Shown here: one piece after another, positions 59,782 through 59,932 of the stretch
Layout: each line of letters begins with the position of its first letter
Position numbering within the stretch: the first letter of the stretch is position 1
Position numbers and translations under genes: made by a program
Assembly: GCF_044324785.1 (NCBI RefSeq)
Contig: NZ_CP172127.1
From: Escherichia coli
Lineage (GTDB): Bacteria; Pseudomonadota; Gammaproteobacteria; Enterobacterales; Enterobacteriaceae
Direction: 5' to 3' (one strand)
DNA length: 64,000 nucleotides
The notes under the pieces: generated by a model
Database searches by the model: none
What the model was told of the DNA's origin: nothing
What the model saw: only the letters and a program-made list of their open reading frames with translations

Positions 59782-59932
59782 TTTTTCCGCATAACTCACT
59801 ATCCTTCTGTCATATCATTAAATTTTTCTGATTTATTGATCTGACAGAAGGTTCATCACTGTTTCATTCACCAGATATGGGTTAATCTTTTAATTACAAA
59901 CTGCGTTGACAGTTGTTGTAAGGAGACCCTGT

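Follow-up and report, generated by a model that had tools for sequence, protein, structure and literature searches.

The intergenic region between fnr and uspE in Escherichia coli encodes a long RNA hairpin that, in our reading (probability about 0.8), fixes and protects the 3′ end of the fnr mRNA by blocking exonucleases. FNR, the master oxygen-responsive regulator of E. coli, is kept at a tightly controlled level, and a hairpin that sets and guards the 3′ end of its message would be part of FNR control. This finding is already known: a 2018 catalogue lists the 3′ end itself, and a 2023 study illustrates the stem-loop as an example of an exonuclease block. Here we analyze a 64,000-nucleotide stretch of E. 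coli DNA (the window, whose coordinates are used throughout) together with related loci across Enterobacterales. The structure of the hairpin, its conservation, its covariation and its strand bias are read directly from these sequences, and the 3′ ends are taken from published maps.

The fnr–uspE hairpin

A preliminary description of this DNA noted a perfect 10-bp inverted repeat at 59803–59851 with a 29-nt A/T-rich spacer, and we confirmed its coordinates, arms and spacer. The outer arms, CCTTCTGTCA (59803–59812) and TGACAGAAGG (59842–59851), are exact reverse complements, and the 29-nt spacer (59813–59841) is 83% A+T. The repeat begins 21 nt after the fnr stop codon (TGA, 59779–59781), one more than the 20 nt first reported, and lies within the fnr 3′ UTR; 81 nt separate its end from the uspE ATG at 59933, in line with the earlier estimate of about 80. 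A 301-nt query spanning the site matched 5399 of 5426 complete E. coli genomes at 95% identity or more, with annotated fnr and uspE. The element is single-copy, with a median of 1 place per genome across these 5399 genomes, and on this count we rejected a dispersed repeat of the REP/BIME type, which would be present in many copies. RefSeq annotates no feature at the hairpin site.

First-order Markov simulations predict ~1.8 bare perfect 10-bp inverted repeats (spacer 3–40 nt) per 64 kb, against 9 observed in the window, so the bare repeat is by itself a weak observation. The other eight loci in this spacer range, each with perfect arms of 10 bp or longer, are centered near 8715, 15560, 22683, 30318, 31136, 34125, 40914 and 62490, and are presumably terminators or REP-like elements. 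The extended hairpin, unlike the bare repeat, is far beyond chance. A repeat search found the spacer to be self-complementary, giving 21-nt arms (59803–59823 and 59831–59851) that are 90% complementary and only 7 nt apart. RNAfold predicts a stem of 10+4+6 bp (20 bp in total) with two 1×1 mismatches and a 5-nt loop, at a dG of -22.8 kcal/mol (z = -8.2; 0 of 200 shuffles equally stable). The hairpin is 31% G+C overall, with an A+T-rich inner half. Its parts and the flanking genes are as follows:

59029–59781, + strand: fnr coding sequence (open reading frame and translation; RefSeq annotation of identical E. coli sequence)
59803–59851, + strand: complete RNA hairpin, 49 nt (repeat search, RNAfold, covariance model)
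59803–59812/59842–59851, + strand: outer stem (RNAfold)
59814–59817/59837–59840, + strand: middle stem (RNAfold)
59819–59824/59830–59835, + strand: inner stem (RNAfold)
59825–59829, + strand: loop (RNAfold)
59813/59841 and 59818/59836, + strand: 1×1 mismatches (RNAfold)
59844, + strand: polymorphic stem position, A in the window (A-U pair) and G in MG1655 (G·U wobble)
59933–60883, + strand: coding sequence of the downstream gene uspE; the uspE promoter and the hairpin DNA overlap (open reading frame; RefSeq annotation)

The preliminary description had considered the loop too long for an intrinsic terminator. This objection falls away, as the spacer pairs with itself and leaves a loop of only 5 nt; it is the lack of a U-tract, not loop length, that sets the hairpin apart from canonical terminators. 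Long-spacer inverted repeats should be re-folded before they are judged.

Across the 151-nt intergenic region, position 59844 is the sole difference between the window and MG1655. The G of MG1655 forms a U·G wobble in RNA and a mismatch in DNA. The 57-mer found in the window is identical in 1277 of the 5399 E. coli genomes (~24%), and most others differ from it by one base. The perfect 10/10 repeat is thus one allele only, and the change at 59844 preserves structure solely in the + strand RNA.

Searched against Rfam at a permissive E-value, positions 59782–59932 gave no match, and no family reached its gathering score. Two sub-threshold matches nearby were taken as chance: a greA leader at 58875–58983 on the - strand (20.2 bits, gathering score 60) and a fluoride riboswitch at 59644–59733 on the - strand, antisense within the fnr open reading frame (16 bits, gathering score 34). 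A small open reading frame in the gap was also considered and rejected, the only candidate being ATG-GGT-TAA.

Conservation, covariation and strand bias in Enterobacterales

We scanned Enterobacterales for FNR protein using one genome per species, and recovered 80 loci. uspE follows fnr by 119–197 nt in 63 of these, and is further off or out of range in 17. A homologous hairpin lies 3′ of fnr in 64 of the 80 species. Our comparative set of 53 sequences, made up of the window and 52 of the 63 uspE-adjacent loci, has a hairpin just past the fnr stop codon in every case (11–23 bp; dG -12 to -29.5, mean -22.2 kcal/mol). Among the 17 species with non-adjacent uspE, 11 also keep it. In the remaining 6, the hairpin has been lost because other DNA now follows fnr, and a canonical GC-rich hairpin with a T run has taken its place; this replacement in 6 of 6 cases supports a role for the element in 3′-end formation. 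From Escherichia to Yersinia, Serratia and Dickeya, the hairpin holds the same position and shows compensatory changes. This depth of conservation, which is new here, indicates that the element is ancient across Enterobacterales.

The gap between fnr and uspE is a hot spot for insertions in Citrobacter, Kluyvera, Yokenella, Pluralibacter, Enterobacter, Leclercia and other genera. The inserts measure 0.3 kb to more than 2 kb, carry unrelated open reading frames and lie 3′ of fnr, from about position 2754 onward in the extracted loci (L004–L007, L009, L010, L014, L018, L019, L029, L033, L034, L039, L040, L044, L050 and L055). In four of these loci (L006, L040, L050 and L055), the insert is preceded by a complete hairpin next to fnr and followed, towards uspE, by another copy of the loop and 3′ arm, so part of the hairpin has been duplicated as an imperfect direct repeat.

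When whole intergenic regions were aligned with MAFFT and folded with RNAalifold, only 5 core pairs were recovered, because gap placement put the outer stem out of register. We therefore used anchor-based folds of each species and a covariance model derived from eight gapless sequences of 49 nt; within the 64-kb window, this model matches the fnr–uspE hairpin and no other locus. Restricted to + strand rows, the resulting alignment contains 59 distinct sequences. Paired cells make up 95% of the total, compared with 32–47% when partners are slid by 1–3 columns, 14 of the 20 pairs show compensatory double changes, and 0 of 500 column shuffles match the observed pairing; these counts are inflated to some degree by the fitting of the alignment to the structure and by the relatedness of the species. 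A register-based test that does not depend on the model gave 83% canonical pairs, versus 32–53% with the partner slid by 1–3 nt. The outer stem varies while staying complementary, reading CCTTCTGTCA/TGACAGAAGG in E. coli, CCTTTTGCCG/CTGGCAAAAGG in Phytobacter, TGCCAGG/CTGGCA in Enterobacter and GCCGGATCA/TGATCCGGT in Brenneria. Comparison of the arms across enterobacteria, proposed in the preliminary description as a check, finds a conserved hairpin whose arms covary.

The pattern of substitution points to the strand on which the pairing matters. In the 59-sequence alignment, G·U occupies 146 cells and A·C only 11. Pairs that switch between A-U and G-C have G·U and not A·C as their intermediate; at pair 10–75, for instance, we count AT 30, GC 18, GT 10 and AC 0. 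In 49 of 53 species, RNA of the + strand folds more stably than that of the - strand; the means are -22.2 and -16.6 kcal/mol, respectively (Wilcoxon p = 1.3e-9). The A/G polymorphism at 59844 within E. coli toggles in like manner between A-U and G·U. Together, the G·U bias and the greater + strand stability argue for selection on a sense-strand RNA hairpin of fnr, not on a symmetric DNA operator or cruciform. This RNA-level selection, with its RNA-specific covariation, is new here as a sequence-based result. It bears out the earlier suggestion of an RNA structural element: the hairpin covaries on the sense strand, and RNA 3′ ends have been mapped a few nucleotides past it. An antisense terminator was considered separately and rejected, the - strand tail not being U-rich.

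Formation of the fnr mRNA 3′ end

Published mapping establishes where fnr RNA ends and that these ends depend on nucleases. We converted MG1655 positions (g) to window positions (w) as w = 59933 + (1398622 - g), and checked the conversion against the RefSeq annotation and base by base, with no indels. The mapped ends, which come from two independent data sets, are:

59854–59860, + strand: cluster of fnr RNA 3′ ends, 3–9 nt past the stem (PMC10667835 Tables S3, S4 and S6; PMC6131387 Supplementary Data 1)
59854 (MG1655 1398701), + strand: PNPase stop, +3 (PMC10667835)
59856 (MG1655 1398699), + strand: RNase II stop, +5 (PMC10667835)
59857 (MG1655 1398698), + strand: RNase E-dependent 3′ end and SMRT-Cappable-seq transcript end, +6 (PMC10667835, PMC6131387)
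59860 (MG1655 1398695), + strand: RNase II start, a U, +9 (PMC10667835)
59935 (MG1655 1398620), + strand: 3′ end inside the uspE start codon, origin of PNPase trimming (PMC10667835 text, Fig. 3g,h legend, Tables S4 and S6)

The fnr stem-loop is a worked example in PMC10667835 (Fig. 3g,h,k). In that study, PNPase trims 81 nt, from 1398620 to 1398701, with an end ratio of 0.80 and a listed dG of -23.6 kcal/mol, and RNase II trims 4 nt, from 1398695 to 1398699. The authors credit RNase E cleavage for the end at 59935, and the 3′ end at 1398698 falls from a share of 0.31 in wild type to 0.07 in an rne mutant (PMC10667835). SMRT-Cappable-seq in M9 medium traced transcripts from the fnr start site at 1399552 to a “novelTTS” at 1398698 (window 59857), the label denoting an end that matches no catalogued terminator (PMC6131387). 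Among 424 reads from the fnr start, 253 end at 1398698, 34 pass through and 38 end at ≤50 bp; the median read-through is 25 nt, and a read-through fnr–uspE operon variant is also listed (PMC6131387). The supplements of Adams 2021 and TERMITe contain neither an fnr entry nor a matching coordinate.

We propose that transcription from the fnr promoter continues past the hairpin and that most transcripts would end within a few tens of nucleotides, while a minority would reach uspE, where RNase E would cleave them at the start codon. The 3′-to-5′ exonucleases would then trim back until the foot of the stem halts them, PNPase at +3 and RNase II at +5. The product would be a stable fnr mRNA ending 3–9 nt past the hairpin. 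By this route, the hairpin would also set the half-life of fnr mRNA and the level of FNR.

The tail that follows the stem, UUCAUCAC, has 3 U in 8, fewer than the five or more in eight of a canonical terminator’s U-run. A terminator scan made no call at the hairpin site, although it did call the terminator of uspE:

60904–60923, + strand: ynaJ–uspE terminator hairpin AGGCCCGAGTTATCGGGCCT, with a canonical 8-bp GC-rich stem followed by ATTTTTT

The same tail averages 3.1 T in 8 across the 53 species, and only 5 of the 53 have at least 5. Because it has no U-tract, we group the hairpin with the U-less protective stem-loops of Rho-dependent or processed transcripts. Dar and Sorek described stable stem-loops without U-rich tails that lie upstream of precise 3′ ends and shield transcripts from PNPase and RNase II (Dar and Sorek, 2018; PMC6061677). 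The fnr hairpin is a member of this class on four of five defining features, namely a stable stem-loop, no U-rich stretch, a precise adjacent 3′ end and, from the published data, an end shaped by PNPase and RNase II; the fifth, Rho dependence, lies outside the assignment. The 40 nt past the stem have more C than G in 52 of 53 species (mean 9.4 C versus 4.8 G), which is compatible with a rut-like region, and this same stretch is the uspE promoter.

Ends at +6 to +9 and little read-through could possibly also come from weak, non-canonical intrinsic termination, in which polymerase would be released 6–9 nt past the hairpin and the exonuclease signals would represent minor trimming. The stable, long hairpin with its 5-nt loop fits such release, as do the mapped ends at +6 and +9, the 253 of 424 full-length primary reads that end there when only 34 pass, and the canonical terminators that occupy the position in 6 lineages; polymerase could natively release the RNA at +9 (59860, a U), where RNase II trimming starts. 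We nevertheless consider this origin unlikely. The E. coli tail is U-poor and goes uncalled by the terminator scan, the shortage of T recurs in all but 5 of the 53 species, and Enterobacter has AAAAACUU directly past the stem. The drop from 0.31 to 0.07 in the rne mutant and the 81 nt of PNPase trimming up to the hairpin further indicate that at least part of the ends come from processing. Far less probable still is that the repeat has no function of its own, as a chance palindrome, a REP-like or mobile relic or a recombination target. The frequency with which bare 10-bp repeats are expected (~1.8 per 64 kb) would allow for this, and the insertion hot spot in several genera, where copies of the 3′ arm flank some inserts, would be in keeping with a relic or target. 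Against it stand the z-score of the whole hairpin (-8.2), its single copy in 5399 E. coli genomes, its retention with compensatory changes in the same place from Escherichia to Dickeya, and the RNA 3′ ends mapped at its base.

Overlap with the uspE promoter and relation to known elements

The uspE transcription start site lies at 59896, which places the hairpin DNA at -93 to -45 of the uspE promoter. This start is an RppH-processed primary 5′ end whose first nucleotides are A-C-A (PMC10667835 Table S1), and SMRT-Cappable-seq reports a start for b1333 at the uspE site, flagged as the same as the known operon (PMC6131387). A literature search for the phrase “uspE promoter” found no paper. Numbered from this start, the features of the region and their conservation are:

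59896 (MG1655 1398659, minus strand there), + strand: uspE transcription start site (PMC10667835 Table S1; SMRT-Cappable-seq)
-93 to -84: 5′ outer arm, 0.92 bits per position
-82 to -73: 5′ inner arm, 0.87 bits per position
-65 to -56: 3′ inner arm, 1.75 bits per position
59832–59841 (-64 to -55), unstranded: TTTATTGATC of the 3′ inner arm, nearly invariant across Enterobacterales
-54 to -45: 3′ outer arm, 0.89 bits per position
59859–59866 (-37 to -30), + strand: conserved block CTGTTTCA, 1.63 bits per position, at the putative uspE -35 position (alignment conservation)
-20 to -7: block containing TAATCT, 1.37 bits per position
59883–59888 (-13 to -8), + strand: TAATCT, likely uspE -10 hexamer (conserved TAnnnT pattern)

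Conservation within the hairpin is thus asymmetric, with partners in the 5′ arm toggling between A and G opposite an invariant T (pair 16–69: GT 39, AT 17). Loci split by insertions show the same asymmetry, though they comprise only 6 and 11 rearranged loci with insertions of undated age: where uspE is in reach, TT[AG]TTGATC followed by CTGTTT is kept in 6 of 6, at 85–88 nt from the uspE ATG and with the 5′ arm mostly absent, and the strict TT[AG]TTGATC is lost in 7 of 11 fnr-proximal hairpins detached from uspE, where compensating changes keep the pairing. This asymmetric constraint at the overlap with the uspE promoter is new here and suggests a dual use of the DNA. Given the position of the hairpin DNA in the promoter region, the 3′ inner arm may be additionally constrained as an upstream element of uspE.

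We tentatively extend the exonuclease-block reading to a dual-coded element, a possibility we hold with some doubt, in which the RNA caps the fnr message and the DNA of the 3′ inner arm and loop (~-72 to -55, core TTTATTGATC) would be needed for uspE promoter activity. The DNA part would possibly be a binding site or an architectural element, for a regulator of no named kind. If the element is dual-coded, the promoter role would freeze the 3′ arm and the 5′ arm would track it, adapting through A/G changes that still pair with U. Genes split by insertion would likewise inherit the two roles apart, fnr retaining a hairpin with a drifting motif and uspE a motif without a hairpin.

The preliminary description had proposed that the palindrome itself could be a regulator site for the uspE promoter. 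A dimeric regulator of uspE, or of fnr, that contacts both arms would account for an inverted repeat in the DNA at -93 to -45 whose core, GCCGGATC ... GATCCGGC, is conserved in many genera. Our data make such a palindromic operator very improbable. The two inner arms are unequally conserved (1.75 versus 0.87 bits per position), pairing is maintained through G·U, a mismatch in DNA, and the DNA repeat is imperfect in MG1655 and about three quarters of E. coli genomes. In addition, the outer arms vary freely while remaining complementary, and the spacing between arms is variable. Checked against the FNR, CRP, IHF and LexA consensus sequences, the conserved motif gave no convincing site. For FNR, the best box scores 7/10 and has an atypical center at -53.5, compared with 9/10 for the genuine site 5′ of fnr; the CRP match is 6/10, and the IHF core (6/7) is not conserved. 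When compared by eye, the motif fits, to our knowledge, none of the Fur, DnaA, ArcA, PhoP, Fis or UP-element consensus sequences. A standard UP element occupies -59 to -38, and the A+T-rich block at -76 to -55 is too far upstream to be one. The idea of a regulator site may survive in a weaker version, for the 3′ half alone (TTTATTGATC) as a uspE-linked DNA element.

Two further features of the promoter region were noted. The sequence CTGTTTCATTCACCAG at 59859–59874, which overlaps the -35 and spacer region of uspE, agrees with the LexA core CTGT-N8-ACAG in 7 of 8 positions. uspE is reported as responsive to DNA-damaging agents (PMC4750201); the right half of the LexA-like sequence is not conserved in other genera, so the match is probably coincidental. 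The 37-nt uspE leader (59896–59932) is highly conserved, at 1.53 bits per position, and contains a 5-bp hairpin, AACUG...CAGUU (59899–59903/59910–59914), just upstream of the AAGGAG ribosome-binding site, where it may have a part in translation or stability.

Our comparative additions are a modest refinement of the published picture. They illustrate on a small scale how RNA and DNA codes overlap, without amounting to a new type of system. The closest relatives of the fnr hairpin are the U-less 3′ stem-loops (PMC6061677, PMC10667835), with which it shares the missing U-tail, a 3′ end a few nucleotides on, PNPase and RNase II stops and a C-rich, G-poor downstream stretch. It differs from them in overlapping the upstream region of the next gene’s promoter, where its 3′ arm appears to be under an extra, asymmetric constraint. 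Like a canonical intrinsic terminator, it has a short loop, lies directly past a stop codon, is followed by ends at +6 to +9 with low read-through, and gives way to such a terminator in six lineages; unlike one, it has no U-tract in E. coli and 48 of 53 species, and its 20-bp stem is unusually long, interrupted and A+T-rich in its inner half. With operators of the FNR/CRP family (TTGAT-N4-ATCAA), it has in common a TTGAT, an inverted repeat near a promoter and a location beside fnr, but it contains one half-site only, its best match is the 7/10 at -53.5, and its symmetry is of the RNA type, with G·U pairs. The ynaJ–uspE terminator is a neighboring conserved RNA hairpin that likewise ends a transcript, that of uspE, and has been studied experimentally. 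ynaJ (60933–61190, - strand) is convergent with uspE, their bidirectional terminator is a published model for termination of convergent transcription, and SMRT-Cappable-seq places the uspE transcript end at MG1655 1397626 (PMC6131387). That terminator works in both directions and has runs of A and T on either side of a short, GC-rich stem of 8 bp, whereas the fnr hairpin is long, U-less and specific to one strand.
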